Source of the DNA: a virus
Taxonomy: Duplodnaviria; Heunggongvirae; Uroviricota; Caudoviricetes
DNA: 64,000 nucleotides
Direction: 5' to 3' (one strand)
Virus record (IMG/VR): IMGVR_UViG_2526164631_000023
Each line of letters starts with the position of its first letter. The stretch's first letter is position 1. A program made the translations under genes and the position numbers. The notes under the pieces are model-generated. The model was not told the origin of the DNA. It worked only from the letters and a program-made list of their open reading frames with translations, and did no database searches. Shown one piece after another: positions 4,038 through 64,000 of this stretch.

Positions 4038-4050
4038 AACTCTAATGATT

Positions 4051-6005: not shown

Positions 6006-6026
6006 ACGCCCCTGATTAAGGGGCGT
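6006..6026 (+). terminator. stem-loop terminator after the capsid-like gene
   Basis: ACGCCCCTGATTAAGGGGCGT hairpin. Confidence 0.4.
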
Positions 6027-6038
6027 TCAGGAGAAAAA

Positions 6039-6317: not shown

Positions 6318-6384
6318 TCAGAGGCTGCCCATTAACCGTGGGTAGCCTTGCCTCGTTCTCTCGCTTTAGAGGATAAGAACCAGC

Positions 6385-8043: not shown

Positions 8044-8080
8044 TTTATAACCCCCGCTAAATGATGCGGGGGAGAGAGGT

Positions 8081-8821: not shown

Positions 8822-8870
8822 GTGACATAGGCCGTCTGCAAAGGTGGCCTCTACCTGGGAGAAATAGCGT

Positions 8871-9461: not shown

Positions 9462-9469
9462 GAGTATTT

Positions 9470-9961: not shown

Positions 9962-10013
9962 TCTCTTTCCCGCCCTTGTGGCGGGAACTCCTTGTATTTG
10001 AGTTGTAGGTACG

Positions 10014-10565: not shown

Positions 10566-10580
10566 CGCTGGAGGCGCAGA

Positions 10581-11288
10581 GTGAGTATTTTCAGCAGCGT
10601 TGGTAGAACGTTGACCACCGCATTGTCATTTAACACGAAATCATTCACCAGCAACCTCATTAGCGACATTCTTGATAAAGCCATATCAGGCGGCGGGGTA
10701 AGCGGGAATTACAGTAGCGATATTGCCTACGGGAAAAATATTGTTGCTGCCGCTATGCGTATCCGTTACGCCCAGGGGTGGCAGTGGACCGTTGAAGTGG
10801 ATGGCCTGAACGGCTTCGATATGTTCGTGAAGGATATCACCTACAGCAGTGGAAACATTGAGACAGAAAGCAAGGTGATCGGCAGCGTAGAATTCAGCAA
10901 GCCAACCTATGTTAGCGCCGGACCGGTCACTATGACCGTGAGGGATACCGAAGATGGCAAGATCATGGACTGGTTCAAAGAGCGTCGTTCTCGTGTAACA
11001 AATCCTGATGGAACAATAAACCTTCCTCCGGAATATCTGATGAAAATCCGTGTCTACCGGGTAACTCAGGACGGCGGAAAAGAACTGGAAGAAGAAATGC
11101 GCGTATTTCCTACACAACTTGGGGAAATCACTCGCTCACGTGATCAGGTGTCAGAGTTCTTGTCATACCCAATCACTTTCCAGAAATACACATCTGCAGG
11201 CTCAGGTGTTTCTGCTTTGGTCAACGGTGCCGCTGGCATGGCTACAAGTGCGTTAAAGGGGGCTATCAGTGGAGTGATCAAATTCTGA
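10581..11288 (+). CDS. hypothetical protein
   Basis: ORF track, 235 aa, RBS GGAGG upstream. Confidence 0.35.
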   Translation: MSIFSSVGRTLTTALSFNTKSFTSNLISDILDKAISGGGVSGNYSSDIAYGKNIVAAAMRIRYAQGWQWTVEVDGLNGFDMFVKDITYSSGNIETESKVIGSVEFSKPTYVSAGPVTMTVRDTEDGKIMDWFKERRSRVTNPDGTINLPPEYLMKIRVYRVTQDGGKELEEEMRVFPTQLGEITRSRDQVSEFLSYPITFQKYTSAGSGVSALVNGAAGMATSALKGAISGVIKF

Positions 11289-11300
11289 AATGCTTTAATT

Positions 11301-11522
11301 ATGTGTGCTGTAGGGAAAGGTTTACGTTAAATGTGTGCTGCCGGGAAACCCCATTGCTCAAGATGTGTTGTAGAGGGAATGGTAATGGCAACATGTGTGC
11401 TGGAGGGGAATTTCGCATGTAAAGAGCGTCATTTATCCCTCCAGCACACATCTGAAATAAGCAATCCTCTGAAATTCCCTCCACCACACATCCAGACATG
11501 AAACTATCCCTTCAGCACACAT
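11301..11522. repeat. incA-like RepA iteron array (about 7 copies, 4 direct and 3 inverted)
   Basis: 19-bp units ATGTGTGCTG(N)GGGAAA at about 11301, 11331, 11362, 11392 and CAGCACACAT-type inverted copies at about 11436, 11475, 11507; matches the P1 iteron consensus. Confidence 0.7.
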
Positions 11523-12386
11523 TTAATCTGTTGGTTTAAGTTTCGGATTCCGAGAGTGAACGATAATGAAGTTTTCACGACCTTGCTTTTCAATGGTGCA
11601 ATCGAGATAACCTATTGTTTTTAACTGGTCTATAGCTTTTTTTATCGTTCTGTTTTGCTCACTTACCGATGACATCAAGGCTAATCTTTCACGTATTCTG
11701 GCAAATGAAATAGGTATTGGACGTGCCGGGAGGCTTTCTATAAAGGTATATATGGCCTGGGCTGCTTCTTTTTTAGGTAAAGCGCGAAGTGCGTGTTGCT
11801 GTAGAAGCACCCGATAGTCTAGCTGGAAGATTTCCCATAACTTGGAATCAGCCTCCAGTTCAACGACATCTGTTTCAAAGTCAAAATATCCCGTTTTAAG
11901 CAGGCCAGTATTGTAGCTTCCACGAGCACTTTTCCCTCTTTTGAATGAGATGCCTTTGTTGCGTAACCGACCTAAAGAATCGTGGATCGTGTTTCTTAAT
12001 TTCCCATCAAGTCGCTTAGATGGAAATCCGCACGCCTTTGCAAATTCTTGAAAAGAAAGGCGAATTGTATTCGATGATAAGCCATACTTGCTAAATGAGT
12101 AGATTACCCCAATCCAGACTTTGAAATCAGTATCCATGTCCAAGCGAGGGCCAGTGATCTTGATGTTGTCGTAGCCTTCTGCTTGAGCTATTTCCAATTT
12201 GGAAAAAACAGATGATGCATCTATCTCGTTGTTTTCACCCTGTTTTTTAGTTGGTTTAGGGACGAAAACACCAAGCCGCATAAGTGCGACAGGTTGAACA
12301 GTATTGTTCGAATTAACTGTTAATTCTTTAGCCTTGCTTTCAATGTCAGCATAAAGAATATCAGAGATAAATGACTTATCCATCAA
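11523..12386 (-). CDS. repA: RepA replication initiator (P1 R-replicon type)
   Basis: 287 aa; MMDKSFISDILYADIESKAKELTVNSNNTVQPVALMRLGVFVPKP... recalled as near-identical to P1 RepA; flanked by iterons on both sides. Confidence 0.85.
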   Translation of the reverse strand: MMDKSFISDILYADIESKAKELTVNSNNTVQPVALMRLGVFVPKPTKKQGENNEIDASSVFSKLEIAQAEGYDNIKITGPRLDMDTDFKVWIGVIYSFSKYGLSSNTIRLSFQEFAKACGFPSKRLDGKLRNTIHDSLGRLRNKGISFKRGKSARGSYNTGLLKTGYFDFETDVVELEADSKLWEIFQLDYRVLLQQHALRALPKKEAAQAIYTFIESLPARPIPISFARIRERLALMSSVSEQNRTIKKAIDQLKTIGYLDCTIEKQGRENFIIVHSRNPKLKPTD

Positions 12387-12447
12387 TAAGTTACCGTCAT
12401 GTTGTGAATAAAGTTTACGACAGTGGATATCCGGCTTTTTTTCCCAT

Positions 12448-12652
12448 CAGCACACATCCTACATCCCGCCAGCACACATGTAAAACCCTCCAGCACACAT
12501 ATTTTTCCCGTCAGCACACATCGTTCTCCCTCCAGCACACATCTGAATAGTGGTTAAAGCCTTATGTGGCGCGGCCTGAAGAGCTACGGGATCTATTTGG
12601 TACTATATGGATCTAATCAGGATCTATATATTGGATCTATCCTGTGGATAAA
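12448..12652. promoter_or_regulatory. oriR/incC-like origin: 5 iterons, GATC cluster and DnaA box
   Basis: CAGCACACAT at about 12448, 12469, 12491, 12513, 12534; five GATC in 12588-12650; CCTGTGGATAAAA (DnaA box) at about 12641. Confidence 0.75.
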
Positions 12653-12737
12653 AAAGAAGAATTACAAAGCTCCACCCAATTTCACACACTACCTATCCTC
12701 CAACGAATAAACAGACATCTGCTTATCGGAGGAATAC

Positions 12738-13559
12738 TTGAACATTCCAAAATTCCCATTGCCTTCCCGTCCTGAGACAGAAATTCAGTTCCACGCCCCT
12801 ACCGTGAAGGATGCGCTGAAATATTCTGACCTGAACCCGGCAGAAGATGAGGCAACTACTACAGAGTACCTTAACTCTATGCAGGATGGTGAAATTAACG
12901 ACAGTGCTTACTGGACAGTCCAAGATCGCAGAACTGCCCTTTGGTGGATATTTGTTAATTCGCGCCCCGATGCAGTAATGACCTACTCCTATGAGTGCAG
13001 TCACTGCGGTAATACGCATCATGCAGATATTAACCTGAGCGACCTGGCCCAAACAGTAGAAATACTCACTGTACCTCCTTACGTGAAAACCAACGTACCA
13101 GTAAATGGAGTACCAACTGACTGGATACTTAAACCATTAACCGGGAAAGGTGTGGAACTCCTTGAACGAATGCGAGCGTCACTTCCTGATATGAAAAGTC
13201 CCGAATACAGTGCTGGCGTAGCACGGATGCGAATTGCTGAACTCGCTTTATGCACGGCGCTTGAAGACGATCCGGAGGACTTCACGCAGGCCGCTAACCG
13301 ACGCTTTGACATCATTGAAAGCATGGCGCTTGAAACCGAATTTACTCCGCTTGTGGCTCGCATACAGCTTATGCAAAAAGACCTACGCCACGGCCTGAAA
13401 ATGTCTATTGAGAGAGGCTCAAGCCGACTGATCCTGCCTCCGCAACATTGCAAAAACGCTAAGGAGGGTGCAGATGTGACAACCACACTGTACGTCCCCT
13501 TTCTCAATAGAGAGTTTATCCCATCAATTAGATCTGAATGGATGGCTAACCATTATTAA
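12738..13559 (+). CDS. hypothetical protein with CxxC...H motif
   Basis: 273 aa; YECSHCGNTHH. Confidence 0.35.
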   Translation: MNIPKFPLPSRPETEIQFHAPTVKDALKYSDLNPAEDEATTTEYLNSMQDGEINDSAYWTVQDRRTALWWIFVNSRPDAVMTYSYECSHCGNTHHADINLSDLAQTVEILTVPPYVKTNVPVNGVPTDWILKPLTGKGVELLERMRASLPDMKSPEYSAGVARMRIAELALCTALEDDPEDFTQAANRRFDIIESMALETEFTPLVARIQLMQKDLRHGLKMSIERGSSRLILPPQHCKNAKEGADVTTTLYVPFLNREFIPSIRSEWMANHY

Positions 13560-13573
13560 CAACCTGACTCTGT

Positions 13574-16500
13574 ATGGATATCAGCCCGTTAGTGACGTTG
13601 AACAATTGCCACAATGGCGAGCACTCCATATGTCAAAAGCCCTGGAAGAAAAATACAAAGCTCAAGCCGGGAAACGTTGTCGCCGCTGGTAAAAGAGAGG
13701 TTATTTTGAAAGAGAATAAAGACCGTATCGCAATAATTGACGCTATTCAGGGGGCGAGCACAAACGAACTTAAGGCTCTTGCTGAGATCAAAGACGCCAT
13801 TCTCTCTGGTAGAGGGTCTATAACTCAACTTGGTGAAAATCAAGGTAAAGTAAGTCAAAGACTATCCCGTAGACTCATAGCAAGCGAACCCTATGTCTCT
13901 GGTGATGCCAAGAATACCCAACCTAACCCATATATAAAACGCCTTCCGATGAAAAAAGGGAGGAAGCAGGTCAACAACGGAGAAGAACGTCTCATTGTTG
14001 CAACCAACACATCAGAGCGCGTTCATTTTGCGTCATCACTCCAGTCCGCCCAAAAGTTGAAAGGTTCTGTGCCAGTAGCCGCTAATTCTGCTCCTCTTGA
14101 ACCACAATCCCCCCAAAGCCAAAAAGGACCGCTTCGGGATAGTAATGGACGCTTTGTATCCCAGAAAAACAACGAAGATATAGCCAGAAAAAAAGAATGG
14201 CAGAACGCACGTAAGGCCGACGCCAAACTACAAGAAGGCTTCCTCCGGAAATTAGGCTCCATTATAGGGGTAGATGGCAATCAGTCTTCCAGTGAAGAGT
14301 CTTTAACAGATGCCGCAGGTATCGGCGCTGGTGGTCCGTTGTGGATAGCTGCTCGCGGCATGTACGACATTACTAAAGAGATCACAGGTAAAGCAGAATC
14401 TCTTAAAGAATGGATAGAAAAGGGGAAAGGTGAGGCTTCATCTTCGAAAGCGACATCACCAGCTATCACTTATCCGGCGGTGGTGAATACTCAAAAAGCA
14501 ACCTCTGCAACAGCATTTAATAATGCTGTTGAGACAAAATCAGCACAAGCAGTAGAAGAGCAAACAAAAATTCTTCAGACCAATGACAACAAAATAATTG
14601 ATGGTCTGGAAAATGTCTCCGACGAAGTAGTTAAGCTACGCAAATCAGTATCTTCTGGAAATAAGTTCGGCTTAAGTGATCTCTGGAGAAATCGAGCAAG
14701 CAGAAGAAATAAAATCAATATTGGCGATCAGGCTGGTAAAAATAAACGGAACAAACCGAAAAGGAAAGGTCGCAATCTGGGGAAAAAAGCCCTTTCTGTT
14801 GGTGAAAAAGCCGCTGCCGGAAGCGCTGCTGCTGGAGCTGGTGCCGGAGCTGCAAAGACTGTTAAAACAAAGGTTAGTAAAGCCAAAGACATCAGCACCA
14901 CAAGCGACGCATCTAAGGGTATTGCTAAAGAAACAAAAAACACAGCAAAGGCAGTTAAGCCAGCAGGTGTTGTTGCCGAAGAGGCCACAATTAAAACAGG
15001 TGAAACTGTTGCAAAGAAAAAAACCGAATCCGTAGCCCTCAAAAGTGCTGCAAAAATAGGTGTTAAATCAGCGGCTTCTACAGCTGCAAGAGCTATCCCG
15101 ATCATCGGATCGCTGGCTATGGCGGGATATGACGCTATAGATGGTTACACTGATACAGATGCGCAAAAGGCAGCCTTTGGATTAAGTGACGATGATGCTG
15201 TATCCGAACAGCAAAAAACGGCTTACGCAACAGCTAATGTGCTCGATATGGGGGGCTTGGTGTCGGGCACAACGAACTTGATAGGGAAAGGAATTTCTGC
15301 GCTAGGATTTGAAAGAGCAGGTGAAAAACTTCAGAATTTTGATACCGGAGATATTGCTCGTGGTGTTAACGGCGCGGTAGATATCAACAAATCTGTTTTT
15401 GGTAGCCTTAAGGATACATTTTTATCCACTGACGAAAACACGAAACAAGTAAAAAAAGCTGTTGAAGACGGCACCAAAAAAACTGTCGATGCGATTCATT
15501 CTCTTGGTGAACAATTACAAGGTGGGCGTAATGGCGAGGATGGAGTTGGTGAGCACGGGTATACTTCTCCAACTGAATTTAGTGCACCTGCCAACAACAC
15601 CATTGCAGCGGATCTGAATATTGGCGGCAGCAACGCTAAAAACCGCAATTACCGAAATAATAATCTCGGCAATCTTGTTTTTGCCAACCAGGAAGGGGCG
15701 ACGCTGGAATCGCCAAATGTAAAAGGTGAACAACGTTTTGCGCGATTTAACACACCTGAAGAAGGGATCAGGGCACTGGCAAACCAGGTTTCCAGCTATT
15801 ACAACGGCACCAGTGCCGCAGCGGGATATCAGAAGTTACAGACGGTATCCAGCATCATTTCAAAATGGGCACCGCCAAATGAGAACAATACTAACCAATA
15901 TATTGATAACGTCAGTAAATATCTTGGTGTATCGCCTAATGAAAAAATAGATGTCAGCAAACCAGAGGTTATGACGCAATTAGTTCGTGCAATTGCGACG
16001 AAAGAAGGCGGAAATCCGGCAGTTAATAATGAGTTCATTAAGAACGCACTTGGAGCATTTAACACAAACACTGGTCGATGGGAGGGACAATTCTCTGACG
16101 AAACATTGGCGCGGATTAATAAAATTCAGAAAGAAAATGGTGGTCAGCTAATTGCCCGCGATTCGCAATATAGTGTTGGTCGCAAGGTAAAATATGCTAA
16201 TGGAAAATCTCCAGCTCAACCAGTTTTGAATGCCGTTCCGACAGCAACACAACAGCCAATTGAGGTTGCACAACATGCCCAGGCAGTCAAAAAGCCACAA
16301 AAAACAGGTAACCAACCACAACCGATTAATCCAGAGAACGCTGATGTTAATACCGGCTCTCCATCGAGTTTGCTTGAGCGGTTAATCGCAATAAATGAAA
16401 GCGGAATCAGTGGTGCAAGTAATTTATTTGGCGGCGCGGCTACCAGCCTTGCTGGAACAAGTCTGGACCTGGTAAAGGATTTTGCGTTAGCTACTTCGTT

Positions 16501-17443
16501 TGGTTCTATATCTTCGCTTTCCGAAAAAGCGAAAGGAATGGATCAGGCTCTTACTGAAAAGATATCCGGCTTAACCGGTAAATCTTTTGGATTTAAAAAA
16601 GCTTCTCAAGTGGCTGATATCGCAACAGCCATACAACAAAAACGCGCTGTTAATCGTGATACAGAAATCATTGATCTACTTCCGGGAGATCAAGTATCCC
16701 CTTCTACTCCGAAAACTCCACAGCAGGAGCAGGCTCTAGCAATCAGCCAGGCTATAGAGGGAGCTGCGCCAGTAGTTGCCTCTGGAAAACGAACTATCAC
16801 GGCACCAAGTGATGTGCAGATTTATGACAACGGCTACAAGGTGGTTACAGGTGAGGATAAGAGCTTCTTTGGTTCGCTATTTGATTCCACGGTGTCAGGG
16901 ATTAAACAGACAGGAACCGCAGCAATTCCTGCCGTTGGCGATAACCTTTCACGACTTGTTGGGGGGATTGATAGTACAGGGATATTGAACGATCTTGTAA
17001 TGCAGTCTACTGGGCAGAATAGTGCGATTGCGCGAGCTATTAGCCCATTAACAAGAAATGTTGGAGACTGGCTGAATGGGGGGATTCAACAAACCGCTAA
17101 TAGCATTAGGGGAATAGCAACTGGTGCCAATAACGCCATATTTGGCTCTGCTTCAGCTGTGCAAGAACCTTTTCTTGCTATGCCGCCACAACTCCCTACT
17201 GTAACCGATCTCGCACGAAGCGGAATAAGACAACCATTAACTACTGACACTATAAATAACGATCCTGCTATGTTGAAGGCGCTGGATAACATCTGCTCTA
17301 TCCTGAACGATCTGCTGAATGTGAGCAAGAACAATACAAAAGGCGATCCGGATAATGTTGTCAAAACATCGCAGCCGCAGCCGCGACCACGTGCGAGCAC
17401 AACTATTAATGACCAGTCGCTGGATGCTCTGCTTGAGGATTAA
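13574..17443 (+). CDS. large virion protein, tape-measure/Sit-like with a possible muralytic region
   Basis: 1289 aa; Lys/Ala-rich central region; conserved-looking segment NNLGNLVFANQEGA...KWAPPNENNT; start codon uncertain. Confidence 0.4.
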   Translation: MDISPLVTLNNCHNGEHSICQKPWKKNTKLKPGNVVAAGKREVILKENKDRIAIIDAIQGASTNELKALAEIKDAILSGRGSITQLGENQGKVSQRLSRRLIASEPYVSGDAKNTQPNPYIKRLPMKKGRKQVNNGEERLIVATNTSERVHFASSLQSAQKLKGSVPVAANSAPLEPQSPQSQKGPLRDSNGRFVSQKNNEDIARKKEWQNARKADAKLQEGFLRKLGSIIGVDGNQSSSEESLTDAAGIGAGGPLWIAARGMYDITKEITGKAESLKEWIEKGKGEASSSKATSPAITYPAVVNTQKATSATAFNNAVETKSAQAVEEQTKILQTNDNKIIDGLENVSDEVVKLRKSVSSGNKFGLSDLWRNRASRRNKINIGDQAGKNKRNKPKRKGRNLGKKALSVGEKAAAGSAAAGAGAGAAKTVKTKVSKAKDISTTSDASKGIAKETKNTAKAVKPAGVVAEEATIKTGETVAKKKTESVALKSAAKIGVKSAASTAARAIPIIGSLAMAGYDAIDGYTDTDAQKAAFGLSDDDAVSEQQKTAYATANVLDMGGLVSGTTNLIGKGISALGFERAGEKLQNFDTGDIARGVNGAVDINKSVFGSLKDTFLSTDENTKQVKKAVEDGTKKTVDAIHSLGEQLQGGRNGEDGVGEHGYTSPTEFSAPANNTIAADLNIGGSNAKNRNYRNNNLGNLVFANQEGATLESPNVKGEQRFARFNTPEEGIRALANQVSSYYNGTSAAAGYQKLQTVSSIISKWAPPNENNTNQYIDNVSKYLGVSPNEKIDVSKPEVMTQLVRAIATKEGGNPAVNNEFIKNALGAFNTNTGRWEGQFSDETLARINKIQKENGGQLIARDSQYSVGRKVKYANGKSPAQPVLNAVPTATQQPIEVAQHAQAVKKPQKTGNQPQPINPENADVNTGSPSSLLERLIAINESGISGASNLFGGAATSLAGTSLDLVKDFALATSFGSISSLSEKAKGMDQALTEKISGLTGKSFGFKKASQVADIATAIQQKRAVNRDTEIIDLLPGDQVSPSTPKTPQQEQALAISQAIEGAAPVVASGKRTITAPSDVQIYDNGYKVVTGEDKSFFGSLFDSTVSGIKQTGTAAIPAVGDNLSRLVGGIDSTGILNDLVMQSTGQNSAIARAISPLTRNVGDWLNGGIQQTANSIRGIATGANNAIFGSASAVQEPFLAMPPQLPTVTDLARSGIRQPLTTDTINNDPAMLKALDNICSILNDLLNVSKNNTKGDPDNVVKTSQPQPRPRASTTINDQSLDALLED

Positions 17444-17448
17444 TACTG

Positions 17449-17823
17449 ATGCTTTACGAAATAGACGCAAGACTTCAAACGAATGAGAGCGGTGTCATTA
17501 TTGCAGAAGGAAGTACCGCAGCATGGATGGCCCGACTTGAGGAGTGGCTACGAACCCCTGAAGGGAGTGTTTATGGTTTACCCTCTTGGGGGAGTCCAAT
17601 GGAAGAATTTAAGCATGAACCATTCGGCTCTGAAACTTCGCACATAGTTGAAGTGGCTATTGAAGGGAGAATGATGAAAAAACTACGACAAGACTTGCCA
17701 GGTTTGGATGTGCAGGGGATTCGTTGCACATCAATTTCTGAAGATTCTTTATTAATTAGTTTTTATGCGAAAGGTGGGAGCATGGATATTGTTATGCAGA
17801 AATCAAGTGGGGTGGGCGCGTGA
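17449..17823 (+). CDS. baseplate wedge protein (gp25/W-like)
   Basis: 124 aa; size and motif pattern LRTPEGSVYGLPSWGSP. Confidence 0.4.
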   Translation: MLYEIDARLQTNESGVIIAEGSTAAWMARLEEWLRTPEGSVYGLPSWGSPMEEFKHEPFGSETSHIVEVAIEGRMMKKLRQDLPGLDVQGIRCTSISEDSLLISFYAKGGSMDIVMQKSSGVGA

Positions 17824-19250
17824 CGATTACAGAATTACTGGACAAATTTAACGCCAAGTTAAATGAAAACACATGGTGGTCACGATTTGTAAATAGTCAG
17901 TTTGTGCAGATGCACGCTATATTCGGATCGCAGCTTATTTATATTGCCCGTACATTTGCAAGCCGCGGCCTCACTGAGGGACTTATTTCAACGGCAACGC
18001 GTCGCTCAAGTATTTTAGCGGTTGCTGAAGACCGTAGCTACGTAGGGCGATTTGTTAGTGCTTCATACGGAACAACGTCTATAACCAATAAAACTGATCG
18101 GGATATTACGTTACCAGCCGGGGCTGAATTGCTTGCCAATGACCAAACACCTTTGGCAATTATTAACAGTGTTGTAATTCCTGCTGGAGGAACTGTTTCT
18201 GGCGTAGAAACTAAACAGCATGAAGCTGTTAGCATTACATTTGATATTGAGAAGGAAACTTTATTTCTGACATTGTTGCTTTCCAGAGAGTTAACAAAAG
18301 AAGTCTCTAGCCTGGATGTTTATGTTATTACAGATGGAGTAGAAGAAAAATGGACATATAACCCATTATTTAGAATGTCCAGAGACAAGAGTAAGCACTA
18401 TTCATTGGCATATAAACCTACAGAACAACTTGGAGTCAAGTTTGGTGATGGTTCTATGGGTATGATGCCTCCAGCAGGCTGTCAGGTTCGAATCGATGTT
18501 ATGGCTAGCCTTGGCGACTATACTTTGGCTGAAGGACAAAAGTTAGAACCGGCTGGAAATATCGCTCAATATGTGGAGTCACTAGAGTTTAAAACTGATT
18601 CGATCATTACCGGTGGTAGTGGTATGGAAACTACAGAAGAAACTCGAAATCGTGCTCAGTATTATGTTGCATACGATGAACAAGTGGTATGGGGCGGTGA
18701 TTATCGCCAATTCATTCAGAATGTTGTTCATGGAACTTCATGGTTGAACGTTTGGGGCGAAGCGTTGCAAGAGAAAATAACTGGGTTTGACGTTCGAAAC
18801 ATAAACAAGATTTTCTTTTGCGGACATAAGCCAGGTGTAAGCCAGGCTCAGCTAAAATCAGAAATACTGAAAGCTCTAGAGAATGTTCCAAATGAGTTGA
18901 ACAAGCGGTTTGAGTATGTAGATACAAATGAACAACCATTTACTATAAAATTTACAGGTATTGCACGTAAAAATGTTCTGATAGACGACGCTCAAAATGC
19001 TATTAAAGCAGCGTTGGAAGATAATTTTGGTCGTGATTCGTCATCATTCAGTTTATTACTACAGAGTGATGATGATTCTCAGCAATGTTATGCACAGGTA
19101 AAAGTTAAAGATATTTGGCGAGTAATAGAGTCGCTGGATATGTTTCTCTCTTATGACATAACAATACAAAATATGAAAGATGCAGTTTACTTTAATGACT
19201 TCATTTATCTTGACGTGAAATCTTCAACGTTCAGCATTTCTTACCCGTAA
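17820..19250 (+). CDS. baseplate J-like protein
   Basis: 476 aa; start overlaps the upstream stop; position in a baseplate cluster. Confidence 0.4.
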   Translation: MTITELLDKFNAKLNENTWWSRFVNSQFVQMHAIFGSQLIYIARTFASRGLTEGLISTATRRSSILAVAEDRSYVGRFVSASYGTTSITNKTDRDITLPAGAELLANDQTPLAIINSVVIPAGGTVSGVETKQHEAVSITFDIEKETLFLTLLLSRELTKEVSSLDVYVITDGVEEKWTYNPLFRMSRDKSKHYSLAYKPTEQLGVKFGDGSMGMMPPAGCQVRIDVMASLGDYTLAEGQKLEPAGNIAQYVESLEFKTDSIITGGSGMETTEETRNRAQYYVAYDEQVVWGGDYRQFIQNVVHGTSWLNVWGEALQEKITGFDVRNINKIFFCGHKPGVSQAQLKSEILKALENVPNELNKRFEYVDTNEQPFTIKFTGIARKNVLIDDAQNAIKAALEDNFGRDSSSFSLLLQSDDDSQQCYAQVKVKDIWRVIESLDMFLSYDITIQNMKDAVYFNDFIYLDVKSSTFSISYP

Positions 19251-19260
19251 TGAGGTTAGC

Positions 19261-20106
19261 ATGAAAGATAATTGGCTTAAGGAACGATTAACTAAAGTAA
19301 AACAGGATTCACATCTCTGGAGTGCATTTATAGACGCTTTACAGGATGTCTGGAATGAGGCAGTAGAACCAATATTAACAAGAATAAGTAACAGAAAATC
19401 CTTCTTCACTATGGACAGTGAGGACATGGATGCCCGCATTGCTGAATACGGGCGTTTTTTCGTTATCACTGAAAAAGATAAGGACCGTAGGCCAATGCTG
19501 CTGGCGCAACGTTTAGATGAAGTGCACTTTAAAGGCACTATCTTGCCTATTGAGCAGACATTCTGGCGTGAATTCGGTTGTATTCCTGTTAGTTGGGAAC
19601 CGCTGTATGCACCTGTAAATATAGAAAAACACCCCTATGGTTCATATTTTGCGACCGAAATAGAAATACCTACGGCACAGGCTCAATTCGGTGAGTTCTT
19701 CCTGACATCAAGGGGGCTGGTCGTTGTTGATCAGAACAAGCTATATCGCTCATATGGAGAGCAGGATAAAGAAGCCGCTGTGCAGAAATTGTTATCTGAC
19801 TTCGAAACAGTAATAGCCCCTTTGTTGCCATTGCATATTGTTTTTGATGGCGTCTCGTTTCGGCTTAGTGCTGTATTCCCTGAAGTGGCAGAAATACTAA
19901 ATTGCTTGTCTACGGATGTTTCGGTAATTGAAGGTGTTTATGTTACTGAGAGTATGGCTGATATGCTATCCCGTAGTGATACCTCCTGCCAGGTAAACAA
20001 TATTTCTCTTAACGCCATACCGAACAGAACGGCAGAAAAGCAATTACATCTTGATGTAACCCCACTCGATGCGTGGCCTTTGGATTACCACCTTCAACCT
20101 GTTTAA
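19261..20106 (+). CDS. baseplate/tail protein
   Basis: 281 aa; followed by a hairpin terminator at about 20110-20135. Confidence 0.3.
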   Translation: MKDNWLKERLTKVKQDSHLWSAFIDALQDVWNEAVEPILTRISNRKSFFTMDSEDMDARIAEYGRFFVITEKDKDRRPMLLAQRLDEVHFKGTILPIEQTFWREFGCIPVSWEPLYAPVNIEKHPYGSYFATEIEIPTAQAQFGEFFLTSRGLVVVDQNKLYRSYGEQDKEAAVQKLLSDFETVIAPLLPLHIVFDGVSFRLSAVFPEVAEILNCLSTDVSVIEGVYVTESMADMLSRSDTSCQVNNISLNAIPNRTAEKQLHLDVTPLDAWPLDYHLQPV

Positions 20107-37873: not shown

Positions 37874-37999
37874 ATTAATTTGATGTTTCTAAATCGGAAT
37901 GTATGATCTGCATCATCGACTGAAGTCATCCATTGCTGAAATTTTTAGTTGATCTTCCATGTTTTCAGGCTTATATTCATGTCGTCGTAGCAAATTCTG

Positions 38000-38200
38000 C
38001 GACCGGGTTTAGCAGCCTGAATACGAATGCGGACAACCGCAGATATCCGATATTGCGGTATTTTTGTGTCCGTAAAACCACGTTACGCCCGAATTATGGT
38101 GGGGCGTGATGGGGAGGCTTCGGCCTGCTGGTTTCATTCGTGCCAGTCTGCTAACCCCGTCACGTCCTGCCACCCGTTTAGCAGCGGGTGCGCAGGTTGT
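38000..38200 (+). ncRNA. candidate c4-like antisense RNA / structured leader
   Basis: GGGTTTAGCAGC (about 38004) and CGTTTAGCAGCGGG (about 38174) are both complementary to GTCTGCTAACCCC (about 38146); hairpin CACCCG-TTTAGCAG-CGGGTG. Confidence 0.2.
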
Positions 38201-51292: not shown

Positions 51293-51369
51293 GATGGTGT
51301 AGCTCAGTAGGATAGAGCAGCAGCCTTCTAAGCTGTCGGTAGGTGGTTCGAATCCACCCACCATCGCCA
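51293..51369 (+). tRNA. tRNA-Arg (anticodon TCT)
   Basis: Manual cloverleaf: acceptor GATGGTG/CACCATC, D-stem GCTC/GAGC, anticodon loop CTTCTAA, T-arm GGTGG-TTCGAAT-CCACC, CCA end. Confidence 0.7.
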
Positions 51370-51374
51370 ATTTA

Positions 51375-51461
51375 GGGGAGTTAGTCCGTAGGGGTAGCGG
51401 GGTAGACTGTAAATCTACTGTCATTGCGACTCGGGTGGTTCGACTCCATCACTCCCCACCA
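51375..51461 (+). tRNA. tRNA-Tyr (anticodon GTA), long variable arm
   Basis: Acceptor GGGGAGT/ACTCCCC, anticodon arm GTAGA-CTGTAAA-TCTAC, T-loop TTCGACT, CCA end. Confidence 0.65.
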
Positions 51462-51465
51462 AATT

Positions 51466-51541
51466 GCCGGTTTAGCTCAGTTGGTAGAGCAGTCGCTTTG
51501 TAAGCGAATGGTCAGCGGTTCGATCCCGTTAACCGGCACCA
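51466..51541 (+). tRNA. tRNA-Thr (anticodon TGT)
   Basis: GCCGGTTTAGCTCAGTTGGTAGAGC...TTTGTAA...GGTTCGATCC...AACCGGCACCA; close to E. coli tRNA-Thr as recalled. Confidence 0.7.
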
Positions 51542-51995
51542 ACACAACAGGTAAGAGCATTTGTAGAGTTCGACTCTCTACCGTGGGCTTTTTCCCGCGA
51601 TGCGAGCCATAAATGCTCTTACCGTTGTGATGAAGTGCAGCTCTTTGAAGCAACCAGAAGATAAGCATCTGGCTTCACAACATAAACCGCAGGAACGACC
51701 AATAAACGGTAGTCCGTATGGAGAACACCCCGTTGAGGAAGAGGTCTGGCCGGAACCGTAACCGGCACTACAACGTTGAGAACACTGGCGTAACGGGGTC
51801 ATATCCCAATCTACGAATAAATGTTGCGTTGCAGCGTGACAACCAGTGTTCTCAACATTGTGGTGAATGCGCAGGCTGATGCGCGAAAGACATTGCAGCT
51901 ATTGCGGAAAAGAGCTGTTCGGCGGGGCAATTAAACGCCCGTGAGAGTCTGAAATAACCGCAAGCCGGAGATCAGCACCGGTCGCCACAATAACG

Positions 51996-52082
51996 GGAGA
52001 GTAGGGAGCATGGTGCTCAAGCGGTCTTGAAAACCGTCCCATTGCGCAAGCGATGATGGTTCGATTCCATTACTCTCCGCCA
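51996..52082 (+). tRNA. tRNA-Ser (anticodon TGA), long variable arm
   Basis: Acceptor GGAGAGT/ACTCTCC, anticodon arm CGGTCTTGAAAACCG, T-loop TTCGATT, CCA end. Confidence 0.65.
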
Positions 52083-52373
52083 GTGCAACGTTAAGAGTAT
52101 TTGGCTAATTAAGCGAATGCCGGAAGCAGAACCGGATCACCAAATGCGTACAGGCGTCATCGCCGCCCAGCCAGCCAAGTGCTCTTACCATTGCGGTGAA
52201 TGCGGCTAAGCGCACGCGGAACAGTTAAAACAGTAAAGGTGGTCTTTTTACTGGCGTAACGAGAATCCATAAGTGATCCGGCGTTAATTGTTAACTGGTT
52301 AACGTCACCGGGAGGCACCCGGCACCGCAACCTAACAGCAATGGCGTTTTGTCTTAAAAGGTGGCTGCAAGTG

Positions 52374-52502
52374 ATGGATTTTTGGGCGTTTGCCGATAAA
52401 AACCCGGAGTGGACATTATTGTTTCTGCTGGTGGTTGCATACGGGGTAGAGCAAGCGGCAAAAGCCTTACGCGGTTCTGGCAAAAAGCGTAAGCGTAATT
52501 AA
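52374..52502 (+). CDS. small hydrophobic peptide (42 aa) inside the tRNA island
   Basis: AGGTGG RBS 10 nt before ATG; MDFWAFADKNPEWTLLFLLVVAYGVEQAAKALRGSGKKRKRN (one TM plus basic tail). Confidence 0.25.
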   Translation: MDFWAFADKNPEWTLLFLLVVAYGVEQAAKALRGSGKKRKRN

Positions 52503-52511
52503 CAGTAATCT

Positions 52512-52587
52512 GGCCCTTTAGCTCAGTGGTTAGAGCGGGCGACTCATAATCGCACGGTCACCGGTTCAAGTCCGGTAGGGGCCACCA
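52512..52587 (+). tRNA. tRNA with anticodon CAT, most like tRNA-Ile2 (lysidine type); elongator Met not excluded
   Basis: GGCCCTTTAGCTCAGTGGTTAGAGCGGGCGACTCATAATCGC...GGTTCAAGTCC...GGGGCCACCA, close to E. coli ileX-type tRNA as recalled. Confidence 0.65.
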
Positions 52588-54114: not shown

Positions 54115-54507
54115 ATGGAACAAATCAGCAGCGCAGAAATTGCGGATATCATGATCAGGGCTGACTGCTATCTGACAGTCACTGAAATTACCACTCTCGC
54201 CAAAGAAAAATACCCTCATCTCCATGTTTCACGAGTAAGTGTAACTAACATCATTCGTCATTTTGTTCGTTCAAGCAGGGCAATCTGTGAGCTTGATGAT
54301 CGTGTTTACCCACGAAAATACTGGTTGCATGGCCTGAACGGATATCAGTTCAAGGTGCGTGGGCGAACCCCTGAATACGGCAGTTTACTGGTTAAAAACT
54401 GTAGCAGGAAATCAGTCGAACAGGCGCGAAAAGAGCAACGAGAGCTGGTGGACATGGCGAATAAGCTGTGGAATGCCGCCGTTAAAAAGCGTGGTGTTGC
54501 TTTATGA
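54115..54507 (+). CDS. hypothetical protein upstream of the terminase genes
   Basis: 130 aa; stop overlaps the start of the next gene. Confidence 0.3.
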   Translation: MEQISSAEIADIMIRADCYLTVTEITTLAKEKYPHLHVSRVSVTNIIRHFVRSSRAICELDDRVYPRKYWLHGLNGYQFKVRGRTPEYGSLLVKNCSRKSVEQARKEQRELVDMANKLWNAAVKKRGVAL

Positions 54508-55868
54508 GTCTGGTTAATTGGGAGGAGCACCGCGCCCGCTTTATAGCGTTGCGTGAAGAAAAAGGGATCACTGTAAAGGAATACTGTGAGGAGCATGGCC
54601 TTAGCTTCAATACAGCCAGAAAGCATCTCAATATGAAAAAAAATGAGGTGCGGTCGCAGGTAAAGACAACAAAAAAAAGCACCAAATCACCTGAAAAAAA
54701 ACGGGCAGGAAGAGCAACAAAAAAGCAGGAAGAGGGTGCAGAAAAAACAAAATTTACAGAAATTGACAATTCGCAGGGCGCAGGTTCTTTCCGAAGTATG
54801 CCGAGAAAGAAAACTTCGGATCATGAAAATAATTTAAATAATAACAATGAGATAAAAGAATCCGTCAGGAGATCATTGCGCGAAAAAATGGCGAAAATGA
54901 TCCCCGAAGAAGATAAAAGTGCCCCAAAAATTGAGGGATCTTCTGCAATGATCCCTGACGGTGCTGTGCAGCGTGCCACATTGCCAACTACGAATGTGGC
55001 TCGCGATATGATGAAGAACGGCGCAGAAGAACACCTGCGGTTAGCAATTCAAATGGCGCAAGAGCGCGCACTTCAGTATCAAAGCATTGTTGATCAGGAG
55101 GCCGAACGTCTACAGGCGGAAATAGACACCTTGGGCGATAAAGAGCCAGAAGGAATGCACCCTGGGCAGCGCCTTCTCGGTCTAATCAGTGACGCGGCCT
55201 ACTACATGAATGATTTTATCAGTAGGTTGGCAGCTATATATCAGTCCGAACAAAAGCTGCGACAGGGGGATGAAAAGCTTCGTCAGAGCGCTCGCCAGCA
55301 AGCATTCAAAGAGGCTGAGGCCAGAGAAAAACTCGAATTAGCACGCCTACAGGCCGAACAGCGTGGCAAAGAGATTGAATATCGCATTGGCGCTGACGCA
55401 CGCGCAGCCAGAGTTATCGCCGCCGCTATACGTATGCGTGAGCGCGAGGAACTGGATGATATCGGTGTTGCTGAATACATCGAGCGCCAGGGTGTCAGCG
55501 TCCCGGCTATCCTCGCGGCGCGCGCGGCGAAAGCTATCACTCTTCTCGAACCACCTGTTTCTGACGTCAATGATGTTGATGATGAACAGCTGGACAAAGA
55601 GGCAAGGGAGTTTGCAACGCTTCAGGCTAACCATCCGCTATGGCTGGCAGAGCGCCGGGCGGATGTGGCAACCATTGTTGAAGAATTGGGTTGCGGAGAT
55701 TACGACCGCAATGGCGAGCGTAAAGCTGGAGAATTCGAGGCCAACGACGAAGAGCTGGATATTGACCCTTCGGCAACGGCTGAAATTTACGGTGATTATG
55801 ATGCATCTGATGCAGGGTATGACGCCGGAGATGATGATATCGCGATAGAACCGCCGGAGGATGATTAA
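54504..55868 (+). CDS. terminase small subunit (PacA-like)
   Basis: 454 aa; basic N-terminal region, acidic C-terminus (DYDASDAGYDAGDDDIAIEPPEDD); stop overlaps the start of the large terminase (TAATG). Confidence 0.5.
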   Translation: MSLVNWEEHRARFIALREEKGITVKEYCEEHGLSFNTARKHLNMKKNEVRSQVKTTKKSTKSPEKKRAGRATKKQEEGAEKTKFTEIDNSQGAGSFRSMPRKKTSDHENNLNNNNEIKESVRRSLREKMAKMIPEEDKSAPKIEGSSAMIPDGAVQRATLPTTNVARDMMKNGAEEHLRLAIQMAQERALQYQSIVDQEAERLQAEIDTLGDKEPEGMHPGQRLLGLISDAAYYMNDFISRLAAIYQSEQKLRQGDEKLRQSARQQAFKEAEAREKLELARLQAEQRGKEIEYRIGADARAARVIAAAIRMREREELDDIGVAEYIERQGVSVPAILAARAAKAITLLEPPVSDVNDVDDEQLDKEAREFATLQANHPLWLAERRADVATIVEELGCGDYDRNGERKAGEFEANDEELDIDPSATAEIYGDYDASDAGYDAGDDDIAIEPPEDD

Positions 55869-57376
55869 TGGCTGGCGGGCGCAAGGTTAAATGCGTCACC
55901 AGAGATCCACGCTGGCGCGATATGGTAATCAAATACCGCTACAACTTTACCCAGGCTGTTGTCGATATTTTTGGGATGTTCCCCTCCCACCAGCAGCAGC
56001 AGATCATTCAGTCCGTACAGGAAACGGGGAGTAGGACTACCGTCACGTCCGGACACGGAACGGGGAAGTCGTCCCTTACCGCGATGTTGCTGTTGATTTT
56101 TATGATCCTGTTCCCCGATGCCCGTGTCATCATTGTTGCTAACAAGATAGGCCAGGTAAAAACAGGCGTATTCAAATACGTTAAACAGTATTGGGCGAAT
56201 GCAGTTAAGCGTCATGGGTGGTTGCAGACCTATTTTGTCCTCTCTGACACCATGTTTTATGAGCGCTCCCGTAAGGGGATTTGGGAAGTTCTCTGCAAAG
56301 GTTATCGACTCGGCAACGAAGAAGCGCTGGCGGGGGAACACGCGGCACATTTGCTTCTAATTCTGGATGAAGCATCTGGTATATCTGATAAGGCGATCGG
56401 CGTAATGACCGGTGCTCTTACTGAAGAAGATAACCGGATGTTGATGCTATCCCAGCCAACAAGGCCAAGTGGTTATTTCTACGATTCGCACCATTCTCGA
56501 GCAAAAACCCCAGGCAACCCGAAAGGGATCTGGACAGCAATTGTTCTTAACTCGGAAGAATCACCGTTCGTCACACCACAATTCATCAAGGAGAAGCTTC
56601 TGGAATATGGCGGGCGCGATTCTATTGAGTACATGGTCAAGGTGCTTGGTCAGTTCCCACGAGAAATTAACGGCTATTTGCTTGGTCGTGATGAATGCGA
56701 TCGCGCTGCTCGCCGCAAGGTGTTGTTGGAGAAAAACTGGGGATGGGTGGCAACGGCTGACGTTGGTAATGGGCGAGATAAGTCGGTCCTCAACATCTGC
56801 AAGGTATCAGGTCACAGGGATAAGCGGCGCGTTGTTAACTTTAAGGTAATGGAGATGCCTGGCACTATGGACCCATTGGCCTTTGCTGACTTCATATATA
56901 ACGAATGTACGCCGGAAAAATACCCGAATATAACAATCGCGGTTGATGCTGATGGTTTTGGTTCTGATACGTGTGCGCAGTTGGTGCGTCGTGGTGCGAA
57001 CCCGGTACGTATTCGGTGGGGAAAACCCATGTTTGCGAACAAAGACAGGGAGCGATTTGTTAATCAGCGTGCCTACGCAAATATTATGGCGCGTGATGCC
57101 ATAAAGTCAGGGCGTATGCGGATAGACAGTGACCCTAAAACGGCAGAGCAAGCGTCAAAAATCCCCTTTTTACTGAATGAAGAGGGGAAAATGGCGATGA
57201 TGCGCAAAGAGCACATGCGGCAAAAGCTAAACATCAAATCGCCTGACCGATGGGATACCTACTGCTTCACTATGCTGGTGGACTATGTGCCTGCTAATGA
57301 AGATATTGGTGCCGAAATGGCAACTTTCCGAGATCAGGTTCTGGCGGATATCGAAATGCCGGATCTGGATATATAA
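55868..57376 (+). CDS. terminase large subunit (PacB-like)
   Basis: 502 aa; Walker A VTSGHGTGKSS; Walker B-like LLLILDEASGI. Confidence 0.75.
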   Translation: MAGGRKVKCVTRDPRWRDMVIKYRYNFTQAVVDIFGMFPSHQQQQIIQSVQETGSRTTVTSGHGTGKSSLTAMLLLIFMILFPDARVIIVANKIGQVKTGVFKYVKQYWANAVKRHGWLQTYFVLSDTMFYERSRKGIWEVLCKGYRLGNEEALAGEHAAHLLLILDEASGISDKAIGVMTGALTEEDNRMLMLSQPTRPSGYFYDSHHSRAKTPGNPKGIWTAIVLNSEESPFVTPQFIKEKLLEYGGRDSIEYMVKVLGQFPREINGYLLGRDECDRAARRKVLLEKNWGWVATADVGNGRDKSVLNICKVSGHRDKRRVVNFKVMEMPGTMDPLAFADFIYNECTPEKYPNITIAVDADGFGSDTCAQLVRRGANPVRIRWGKPMFANKDRERFVNQRAYANIMARDAIKSGRMRIDSDPKTAEQASKIPFLLNEEGKMAMMRKEHMRQKLNIKSPDRWDTYCFTMLVDYVPANEDIGAEMATFRDQVLADIEMPDLDI

Positions 57377-57404: not shown

Positions 57405-58442
57405 TTACCAGAGCTTTGCGGCGTGCTGCGTTTGGGGGAATGTGTATCCGTAACGTTCTTCGATTGCTTTGCCGTATTTTTTACGCGCTTCATTCAGTTT
57501 GATGCCGGTCAGGTCGTCTCCAGAGGCCATCATTACGTCTAACAATTCCAGATCCATTTTATCCAGCCTTGCCATTGCTTCACGCGATGTACGAATCTTA
57601 CGTTCAATGATATGGCGAATGGCCGGATCGGCATCCTCCAGCATCTTAGCGGATTTCTGCTTAAGGTTTTCGTTGCGAATATCGATGTTCCTTAAGATGT
57701 ACGACTTCGCAACGTAGCTTGGCTGGTGTTTTTCCAGGTCACGAACACGATATAAGTTAAAATCGCCGAGAAGGCTGCAAGGTACCGATTCGACGCCAGA
57801 ATAAATTGTAATGCTCCGGCGTTCACCAACATTATTGACAACGGGGATCGTTGTCTTCGGTAGTCTTGCGAAAACCAATGCGCCATGTGCGCCAACTCTA
57901 AAGCGAGAAAGGGCATTGCTGCCTTCGATGTTTGTTGTCAGCACAACATCTGTATATGCCTCTTTACGCGCCCGGTAGATCTCGCCTTCAGGCTCAGCTT
58001 CAAAGAAGCGCTGTTCTTCTTCAAGAGCACCTACGATTTGAGAAAAAACCCTATTTTTCAGGCTTTTCTTTATGATTTTGTCGTATTTTTTGAGCAATTG
58101 CTCACGTGTAAATGTACGTGTTGTTGTAGCGCTTTGCACAACAACATGCGTGCTTTGATTGGTGTCCTCAATGATGAATGGGATCGGAGAATATACAGAC
58201 TCAACAATGTTCGACGCTTTGCCGTCGGCATCGCGACACATGTCAACGAAGGCTTTCCATTCAGCAAGACATTTTTCAGCTTCTTCTAATATGTTTTGGT
58301 CATGCGTTAATGCAACATGGCGGAATTCCTCGCCAGCATAACTGGTATCATGGAAAACAGAGTTTGCGACCACCAGCTCTTTCCACCGTTCAGCGGTTTG
58401 CAGGAACCGTTTGTACTCTTTCTCGATCGACTTCTTACTCAT
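57405..58442 (-). CDS. hypothetical protein at the position where P1 carries the c1 repressor (candidate regulator)
   Basis: 345 aa; between terminase and the lox-like site; TGTTAGAAA motif immediately upstream of its start. Confidence 0.3.
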   Translation of the reverse strand: MSKKSIEKEYKRFLQTAERWKELVVANSVFHDTSYAGEEFRHVALTHDQNILEEAEKCLAEWKAFVDMCRDADGKASNIVESVYSPIPFIIEDTNQSTHVVVQSATTTRTFTREQLLKKYDKIIKKSLKNRVFSQIVGALEEEQRFFEAEPEGEIYRARKEAYTDVVLTTNIEGSNALSRFRVGAHGALVFARLPKTTIPVVNNVGERRSITIYSGVESVPCSLLGDFNLYRVRDLEKHQPSYVAKSYILRNIDIRNENLKQKSAKMLEDADPAIRHIIERKIRTSREAMARLDKMDLELLDVMMASGDDLTGIKLNEARKKYGKAIEERYGYTFPQTQHAAKLW

Positions 58443-58461
58443 TATTCCTACTCGATTTAGT

Positions 58462-58470
58462 TTTCTAACA
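58462..58470 (-). promoter_or_regulatory. TGTTAGAAA motif copy (minus orientation)
   Basis: AGTTTTCTAACATAAAAT. Confidence 0.4.
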
Positions 58471-58650
58471 TAAAATTACTATGACAAATTTATGTCGAAT
58501 AACAGAGTGAGTAAAGGATAGAGCTGTGATTTTTTGTCATCAATTTTAGAAAACCAACTGTATAAACCACACTTCGCAAATTAAAGACCATGAAGGCAAC
58601 GTGTTACTGGTCAGAATCAATCTGTGATGGATTAAAAAAATCGCCATTTT

Positions 58651-58684
58651 ATAACTTTAAATAATTGGCATTATTTAAAGTTAG
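58651..58684. other. lox-like recombination site (13-bp inverted arms, 8-bp spacer)
   Basis: ATAACTTTAAATA ATTGGCAT TATTTAAAGTTAG; arms 12/13 complementary; compare loxP ATAACTTCGTATA GCATACAT TATACGAAGTTAT. Confidence 0.6.
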
Positions 58685-58835
58685 GCTATAATCATGTGTA
58701 GATGAACAGTGTTGACATCACTGAAAATACGTGCCTCGAATCAAAGGCTTGTATTTTGAAAATTAACTTATAGCTACCCTGTCATTTTTATATTTTTCGC
58801 GTAGCGTCATCTGTATATAGAGGTCAAATAGTTTC

Positions 58836-59864
58836 ATGAGTGAATTAATTATCTCTGGCAGTTCCGGTGGTTTTCTGCGCAACATTGGCAAAGAGTACCA
58901 GGAAGCCGCAGAAAACTTTATGCGGTTCATGAATGACCAGGGGGCTTATGCGCCGAATACTCTGCGCGACCTCCGGTTGGTGTTTCATTCCTGGGCGCGC
59001 TGGTGTCACGCTCGCCAGCTTGCCTGGTTTCCGATCTCACCAGAAATGGCCCGCGAGTATTTTCTTCAGCTGCATGATGCCGATCTGGCTTCGACCACCA
59101 TTGATAAGCACTACGCCATGCTGAACATGCTGCTTTCGCATTGTGGCCTTCCGCCACTTTCGGATGATAAAAGTGTTTCTCTGGCTATGCGGCGCATCCG
59201 GCGCGAAGCGGCAACTGAAAAAGGCGAACGAACAGGCCAGGCTATACCGCTTCGGTGGGACGATCTGAAACTGCTCGACGTCCTGTTGTCCAGGTCAGAA
59301 CGGCTGGTAGACCTGCGCAACCGGGCTTTTCTCTTTGTTGCATACAATACGCTGATGCGTATGTCGGAAATATCGCGTATTCGTGTAGGTGATCTGGACC
59401 AAACAGGTGACACTGTCACGCTACATATTTCACACACGAAGACAATAACGACCGCCGCCGGGCTTGATAAGGTGCTTTCCCGTCGCACTACTGCTGTGCT
59501 GAATGACTGGCTGGATGTTTCCGGGCTTCGTGAACATCCTGACGCGGTGCTGTTCCCGCCGATACACCGTAGCAATAAGGCCAGGATTACGACAACGCCC
59601 CTTACTGCACCTGCAATGGAGAAAATATTCAGCGACGCCTGGGTGTTGCTGAATAAAAGGGATGCCGCGCCAAACAAAGGGAGATACCGGACGTGGACCG
59701 GGCATAGTGCTCGTGTCGGGGCCGCTATCGATATGGCTGAAAAGCAGGTGTCTATGGTGGAGATCATGCAGGAAGGAACCTGGAAGAAACCGGAAACACT
59801 TATGCGGTATCTGCGCCGTGGCGGTGTGTCTGTGGGGGCTAATAGCCGCTTGATGGATTCGTAA
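58836..59864 (+). CDS. Cre-like tyrosine site-specific recombinase
   Basis: 342 aa; recalled Cre alignment: RNRAFLFVAYNTLMRMSEISRIRVGDL, WTGHSARVGAAIDMA, VSLAMRRIRRE. Confidence 0.85.
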   Translation: MSELIISGSSGGFLRNIGKEYQEAAENFMRFMNDQGAYAPNTLRDLRLVFHSWARWCHARQLAWFPISPEMAREYFLQLHDADLASTTIDKHYAMLNMLLSHCGLPPLSDDKSVSLAMRRIRREAATEKGERTGQAIPLRWDDLKLLDVLLSRSERLVDLRNRAFLFVAYNTLMRMSEISRIRVGDLDQTGDTVTLHISHTKTITTAAGLDKVLSRRTTAVLNDWLDVSGLREHPDAVLFPPIHRSNKARITTTPLTAPAMEKIFSDAWVLLNKRDAAPNKGRYRTWTGHSARVGAAIDMAEKQVSMVEIMQEGTWKKPETLMRYLRRGGVSVGANSRLMDS

Positions 59865-59875
59865 ATTAAATTTCT
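59865..59875 (-). promoter_or_regulatory. TGTGTTAGAAA motif copy (minus orientation) directly after the recombinase stop
   Basis: AAATTTCTAACACAT. Confidence 0.4.
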
Positions 59876-59925
59876 AACACATCTTTTTAGATTGATATCT
59901 TTGCTGTAAAGTACCCTCGCCTATT

Positions 59926-60282
59926 TTGGAGGGTGCTTTGCAGAGTCAAATCACGGAATCAAGACGCTTCACGGTGGATGGTTACACCGTAACCTTCGCC
60001 GCTGGTGTTAAGAACAGTCATGCTGTCGTTGTATTCGGCATCATGACCGGGCTTGAGGCCGTCACTGTGTTTACCCTCGAAAAAAACTGGCGAAATCTGG
60101 AGGAAGCAGAAAGCTACGTCCGGAAAGTAACCATCATTGCCGCCGAAAAACTCCTGGCCCACTATCAGGAAAATTATCGCACTATGGTCGAGAAGATTAA
60201 TCTCGCTTTCACTCGCCCCACTACCGGCTTTATTGCACCGGATACTAATGCAGGTCGCTATCCTGCAAGGGGGCGTCGGTGA
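59926..60282 (+). CDS. hypothetical protein
   Basis: 118 aa ORF; start uncertain. Confidence 0.3.
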   Translation: MEGALQSQITESRRFTVDGYTVTFAAGVKNSHAVVVFGIMTGLEAVTVFTLEKNWRNLEEAESYVRKVTIIAAEKLLAHYQENYRTMVEKINLAFTRPTTGFIAPDTNAGRYPARGRR

Positions 60283-61260: not shown

Positions 61261-63974
<2,714 letters not shown>

Positions 63975-64000
63975 ACATGTATTCCCGGTGAAAAAGACAA

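Follow-up and report, generated by a model that had tools for sequence, protein, structure and literature searches.

The locus at positions 58651-59864 of the DNA analysed here (the window, i.e., the whole stretch of 64,000 nucleotides) is almost certainly a Dre/rox module for site-specific recombination, carried by an E. coli phage-plasmid that resembles phage D6. Megablast analysis of the segment 58440-59900 against phage records retrieved Escherichia phage D6 with 97.9-98.3% identity, and the D6 features lying under the match are annotated as 'dre: tyrosine recombinase' and 'region of crossover (rox) site for Dre recombinase'. The D6 record AY753669 places rox at 4909-4940 and dre at 5093-6121, and the 400 nt around the rox site of the window are 98% identical to this record. 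There is no evidence contradicting the identification, and the Dre/rox pair is already known and therefore represents no new discovery. It is said to have been reported for Escherichia phage D6 (GenBank AY753669 and MF356679) by Sauer and McDermott in 2004. Characterisation of the system dates back to 2004, and it is routinely combined with Cre/loxP in the engineering of mice, zebrafish, mammalian cells and bacteria.

The rox site and its recombinase

The module consists of the following features:

58651-58684, plus strand: 34-mer ATAACTTTAAATAATTGGCATTATTTAAAGTTAG, comprising rox and one native flanking base per side (A...G)
58652-58683, plus strand: rox, 32-bp Dre recombination site, a perfect 14-4-14 inverted repeat
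58652-58665: left arm of rox, TAACTTTAAATAAT
58666-58669: asymmetric spacer of rox, TGGC
58670-58683: right arm of rox, ATTATTTAAAGTTA
58836-59864, plus strand: dre, coding for a Cre-type tyrosine recombinase of 342 aa (A278 allele); intact ORF started by ATG

Both arms of rox are 100% complementary across a gap of 4 nt, as detected by a repeat finder, and 152 nt separate the end of the site from the ATG of dre. The 32-mer is present as a single copy in the 64-kb window, as is the 14-nt arm with up to two mismatches allowed, and neither a second rox nor a pseudo-rox was found there. No match to the 32-mer was obtained in 100 shuffles of the sequence (0 expected by chance), and the palindrome is far above chance level. 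All 32 of its positions are identical to the misc_recomb feature 'rox' of AY753669 (4909-4940 there), and rox as published, 5'-TAACTTTAAATAATGCCAATTATTTAAAGTTA-3' (PMC4777119), is the reverse complement of the plus strand of the window; published rox oligonucleotides agree with the site as well. The native D6 sequence printed by Suzuki & Nakayama 2011 as '(A)TAACTTTAAATAAT TGGC ATTATTTAAAGTTA(G)' (PMC3082901) matches the 34-mer exactly. The locus thus contains what is typical of Cre-type recombinases, namely a target of 32-34 bp with inverted arms and a short asymmetric core near the gene.

An earlier note, made from the sequence without database searches, had described a 34-bp site about 150 bp upstream of a recombinase gene, with a TATAAT hexamer just downstream. 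Indeed, the 34-mer ends 151 nt before the ATG, and the hexamer follows after 2 nt at 58687-58692. The same note had parsed the site as 13-8-13. This is a legitimate loxP-style alignment, which is also used for comparisons in the literature (PMC4777119), but it leaves the outermost A...G unpaired, so that 12 of the 13 positions pair, whereas perfect symmetry is obtained with the 14-4-14 parse given in published descriptions of rox (PMC4777119, PMC12331466). The compatibility of sites is set by the bases at the arm/spacer junction (PMC4777119). As claimed, the arms differ from those of loxP at three of 13 positions (ATAACTTTAAATA vs. ATAACTTCGTATA, positions 8-10), and exactly these bases were highlighted by Karimova et al. 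2016 (PMC4957104); the core is different as well. The loxP sequence itself (ATAACTTCGTATA-GCATACAT-TATACGAAGTTAT) does not occur in the window, where two isolated half-site-like matches with two mismatches each correspond to chance level. With a 14-4-14 repeat that is unique in the window lying beside the gene, the proposal of a natural pair of a recombinase with its own lox-like site was correct.

The dre product belongs to the tyrosine recombinase superfamily, as indicated by a match of residues 157-327 to the Pfam family Phage_integrase (PF00589) with 62.6 bits at a gathering score of 27.1. Residues 22-341 align with residues 21-340 of Cre (E = 5e-69 with PDB Cre chains), showing collinearity over the full length, and the identity to P1 Cre is 40.5% in a global alignment, which agrees with the initial description as a Cre-family protein far from identical to Cre. 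All of the catalytic residues R175, K202, H290, R293, W316 and Y325 are present and align with R173, K201, H289, R292, W315 and Y324 of Cre, and the identical numbering has been reported for Dre (PMC4777119). The protein also contains R44, P259 and K263, which are assigned roles in rox specificity (PMC4777119, PMC4957104); introducing the respective exchanges K43R, R259P and G263K into Cre leads to activity on rox (PMC4957104). No solved Dre structure was present among the PDB matches, all 17 distinct sequences of which are Cre or engineered derivatives such as Tre.

Compared to Dre of phage D6 (AAV84949), 341 of the 342 residues are identical, the sole change being T278A. A 342-aa 'Dre' with 99.7% identity is listed for E. 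coli DEC12A in the supplement of Karimova et al. 2016, and judging from the sequence, the window allele is this catalogued DEC12A allele. It may be asked whether T278A alters the activity or the target preference relative to laboratory Dre, as it is the only difference from the D6 enzyme and is located five residues before R283, the counterpart of R282 in the Cre alignment. However, position 278 belongs to a gapped, variable stretch of this alignment and is occupied by K in Cre and by A, T or P in natural relatives keeping rox-type sites, including a relative with 70% protein identity (L109) that also has A278 together with rox arms. Moreover, the cognate site of the window element is an unchanged rox. 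Because position 278 varies among relatives, an effect of A278 vs. T278 on Dre is unlikely, and we consider an altered enzyme highly improbable.

Dre recombines rox efficiently in E. coli and does not cross-react with Cre/loxP, VCre or SCre (PMC3082901), and cross-reaction between Cre and Dre was likewise absent in B. subtilis (PMC12331466). The suspected difference in specificity from Cre/loxP is therefore supported by published assays with the identical site and a protein one residue apart; the A278 allele itself probably recombines rox without acting on loxP, as shown for laboratory Dre. A Cre-like pair that is truly new and orthogonal to every system described so far might have been expected from the 40.5% identity to Cre and from arms and a spacer unlike those of loxP, but its probability is negligible with a site that is the published rox, a protein 99.7% identical to Dre, and an allele already catalogued in E. 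coli DEC12A. Likewise, the suggested interest as an orthogonal recombination tool is real, but this value was realised two decades ago with the same pair, and the recombinase, while divergent from Cre (40.5%), is not merely similar to Dre but is Dre, one of the enzymes that the earlier note had named for an alignment. The raw sequence was nevertheless enough for recognising a true recombinase/site pair.

Phage-plasmid context and natural distribution

The genes surrounding the Dre/rox module and those of an insertion element downstream of it are located as follows:

about 54505-55869: pacA, directly upstream of pacB
55868-57376, plus strand: pacB, large terminase subunit; ORF
57405-58442, minus strand: c1, coding for the phage repressor and pointing away from rox; counterpart of c1 in AY753669
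60752-61246: dut, following dre and two small ORFs
61807-62588, minus strand: istB of IS100, frameshifted
62585-63607, minus strand: istA of IS100

The order pacA-pacB-c1-rox-dre-orf2-orf3-dut in the window is that of the D6 immC region (AY753669). The annotation of AY753669 reads lpa-pacA-pacB-c1-rox-dre, and the same order is present in the D6-like plasmid NZ_CP066033.1. The intergenic DNA between c1 and rox is 98% identical to D6, and, similar to P1, the distance between rox and the packaging genes is about 3-4 kb. Positions 1-20000 of the window are 96% identical to phage D6 and contain tail, capsid and partition genes. Because of the immC gene order and the 96% identity of structural and partition genes to those of D6, the sequence identifies the window as a D6-like phage-plasmid. 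Among complete records, the closest matches (99.9%) are 97,453-bp plasmids, one from E. coli O111:H2 strain 12A and one from FDAARGOS_1059.

Some further elements were recorded in the window. A C4 antisense RNA with an a1/b1 target element, as in the P1-type immI immunity region, is located at 37971-38177, and five tRNA genes (Arg-TCT, Tyr-GTA, Thr-TGT, Ser-TGA and Met-CAT) at 51293-52587. The motif TTTCTAACA is present in nine copies compared to 0.66 expected (positions 4053, 36667, 37865, 47768, 48811, 50060, 50216, 58462 and 59871), with an asymmetric extended consensus of about 17 nt, aTTA.tTTTCTAACAcA. Copies are found between c1 and rox, 7 nt past the stop codon of dre, and beside the C4 antisense RNA. 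By analogy to the scattered C1 operators of P1, they are candidate operators of a D6-type C1 repressor.

Downstream of dut, a copy of IS100 (IS21 family) at about 61740-63697 is inserted in a gene of the DUF2829/Tad2 family starting at 61261. Within the element, a 1-nt deletion near 62100 breaks istB into two ORFs of 162 and 97 aa ('QRE*' at the point where an intact IstB would continue with 'VMAPRLL...'). The remaining segment, 63698-64000, contains a truncated GTPase gene of the YeeP/YfjP type, which is chromosomal-type and non-D6-like. When compared with E. coli O111:H2 strain 12A, IS100 and the sequence to its left match the 97,453-bp plasmid to 100%, and IS100 and the sequence to its right match the chromosome to 99.9%. 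The junction at 63697/63698 reflects either an IS100-mediated plasmid-chromosome cointegration or an assembly join across the repeat. That Dre/rox itself integrated the phage-plasmid into the chromosome, which the match of 63698-64000 to the chromosome rather than the plasmid of strain 12A might suggest, is hardly credible, as the switch occurs at the IS100 copy about 3 kb from rox and not at rox, both arms and both flanks of rox are of the plasmid/phage form without any hybrid rox, and the junction is explained by IS100 recombination or an assembly join.

The conservation of the site was analysed in 36 IMG/VR contigs encoding relatives of Dre with 55-100% identity, 35 of which cover the sequence upstream of the gene. 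Each of these 35 contigs has a rox-type palindrome beginning 184 nt ahead of the ATG (183-187 nt as parsed in divergent variants), and the site therefore passed the refutation test set in advance by the earlier note, i.e., whether it is conserved in related elements. This question was judged on viral contigs, while the relatives retrieved by a scan of genome contigs all came from Pantoea, Erwinia, Rahnella and Mixta and, at 41-47% identity, were unsuitable for it. The following forms of the site were found:

exact rox: 22 of 35 loci
single A-to-G change in the left arm: 9 loci, plus L106
spacer GGGG: L098
spacer TTGGAG together with the left-arm A-to-G change: L106 (89% protein identity)
spacer TAGC: L109 (70% protein identity)
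ATAACTTTATATAA-TGTCAG-TTATATAAAGTTAT: L111 and L112 (55-56% protein identity)

The A-to-G change affects only position 9 of the left arm (TAACTTTAGATAAT), creating an asymmetric rox variant in 10 of the 35 relatives (L079, L081, L083, L085, L094-L096 and L104-L106). It often occurs with C for A just outside the arm, and its partner enzymes range from a Dre identical to canonical D6 Dre (L079) to one with 89% identity to the window Dre. The enzymes of L111 and L112 (gene at 1501, site 184 nt upstream) are 55-56% identical to Dre and 40% to Cre and have kept R44, P259 and K263, and their arms are intermediate, with two differences from loxP and one from rox in the 13-nt frame. From these sequences, enzyme and site of L111/L112 may possibly represent a further heterospecific pair. 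A literature search for the variant sites, including the L111/L112 sequence, gave unrelated matches only.

Outside the viral contigs, PLSDB contained 144 plasmids with the locus, and of 5,426 complete E. coli genomes, 124 had it, with 124 of 127 places on plasmids. Dre/rox is a natural, widespread and conserved module: it is common in nature, with about 2% of the complete E. coli genomes carrying it, nearly always on D6-like phage-plasmids. The natural rox variants, i.e., the left-arm A-to-G change, the spacers TAGC, GGGG and TTGGAG, and the lox/rox-intermediate site, could seed new heterospecific pairs.

A promoter overlapping rox and the natural role of Dre

A consensus scan of the region 58400-59960 detected a single promoter-like site, which overlaps rox:

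58665-58692, plus strand: predicted sigma-70 promoter reading towards dre, 11 of 12 consensus positions

The predicted -35 element TTGGCA (58665-58670) consists of the TGGC spacer with the adjoining base of each rox arm, and is followed after a gap of 16 nt by the -10 element TATAAT (58687-58692). The -10 element is kept in every relative with at least 70% protein identity, even where the flanks have fully diverged. The -35 element is also unchanged in these relatives except for L098, L106 and L109, whose spacers GGGG, TTGGAG and TAGC weaken it. The promoter is absent in the relatives with 55-56% identity. No comparable promoter exists beside loxP of P1. There is no GATC between c1 and dre, and a P1-style regulation of dre by Dam was rejected for this reason; a structured 5' leader (58699-58850) was rejected as well, because it folds no better than shuffled sequences (z-score -0.92).

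Transcription of dre would start from this strong promoter, and because Dre bound to rox would occlude the -35 element, it might block the promoter and repress its own gene, limiting its own synthesis. The rox site would then double as the control region of dre and keep the recombinase at a low, self-limited level. We put this forward as a reasonable but tentative idea, which we consider less likely than not. If it were true, the rox spacer would be under dual selection for promoter strength and crossover identity, and a low and self-limited recombinase level would suit a low-copy plasmid prophage. The accessible literature, a scope that excludes the original 2004 description, contains no mention of a rox-embedded promoter or of autoregulation, and the embedded promoter is a small point that may be new. 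In practical terms, the native right flank of rox supplies a predicted strong promoter reading outward, which is relevant for bacterial rox constructs.

The near-consensus promoter overlapping the palindrome with its -35 element in the spacer, and the conservation of the -10 element in the Dre clade, may also be taken to mean that the palindrome is mainly a transcriptional element of dre (promoter/operator) rather than a recombination site. We give this explanation practically no chance. The 32-mer alone suffices for excision and integration by Dre in heterologous plasmids and genomes (PMC4777119, PMC4957104, PMC12331466, PMC3082901), and the 55% relatives have conserved arms despite lacking the promoter. 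An exclusively regulatory role is therefore refuted by the published assays, whereas a dual role of rox in recombination and regulation is plausible.

As a recombination site, rox requires only the recombinase: Dre alone recombines two rox sites by excision or integration in E. coli, B. subtilis and mammalian cells (PMC4957104, PMC12331466, PMC3082901). One Dre monomer should bind to each 14-bp arm, and a Dre tetramer would synapse two sites if the reaction follows that of Cre. By the same analogy, Tyr325 would cleave the DNA, and the strands would be exchanged via a Holliday junction in the central region, with the asymmetric TGGC core giving the site its direction. Dre acts without any accessory factor. 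Its preference for rox over loxP derives from the three differing arm positions (TAA vs. CGT) and from residues including R44, P259 and K263.

The natural role of the system may be deduced from that of P1. With a single rox, Dre would resolve dimers of the low-copy plasmid-prophage so that partition works, and it may circularise incoming, terminally redundant phage DNA whenever rox falls in the redundant ends. For dimer resolution, we consider the analogy to Cre/lox of P1 a reasonable one. Both functions would fit the locus because rox is present only once, the pac genes are 3-4 kb away, and no candidate C1 operator is located between rox and dre; without such an operator in between, dre can presumably be expressed in the lysogen.

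Comparison with known recombination systems

Compared to Cre/loxP of P1, the D6-type system shares the protein family with full-length, fold-level homology and the catalytic R-K-H-R-W-Y set, a site that precedes the gene close to the c1/pac region and has inverted arms flanking an asymmetric core, and the presumed roles in cyclisation and dimer resolution. It differs in an amino acid identity of 40.5%, far from near-identity to P1 Cre, and in a 14-4-14 instead of a 13-8-13 site with three differing positions per arm, and the two systems do not cross-recombine. The gene arrangement differs as well: in P1, about 420 nt separate lox and cre and contain cra, three weak promoters (100-420 nt away) and Dam sites, whereas the window has 152 nt between site and gene, no GATC, and one strong predicted promoter overlapping rox.

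VCre/VloxP, SCre/SloxP, Vika/vox and Nigri/nox are also Cre-type systems with inverted-repeat sites of 32-34 bp which are used as orthogonal tools (PMC4957104, PMC3082901). These enzymes are far more distant from Dre and act on unrelated sites, without any reported cross-reaction with Dre (PMC4957104, PMC3082901); the DEC12A Dre allele, for example, is 24% identical to Vika (Karimova et al. 2016, supplement). Panto/pox of Pantoea sp. aB has arms that are one base off rox, and both enzymes have the R/P/K residues in common (Karimova et al. 2016, PMC4957104). Dre and Panto recombine each other's site (Karimova et al. 2016, PMC4957104), but Panto is reported to be about 52% identical to Dre, and the different spacer prevents recombination between rox and pox (PMC4957104).

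With Dre/rox of phage D6, finally, the module of the window agrees in all 32 bases of rox, 341 of 342 residues of the protein, the distance between site and gene, and the neighbouring genes. The differences comprise a few flank substitutions and one change in homopolymer length (97.9% identity over 1.46 kb), the T278A exchange, and the IS100 insertion that the window element carries about 1.9 kb downstream of dre.
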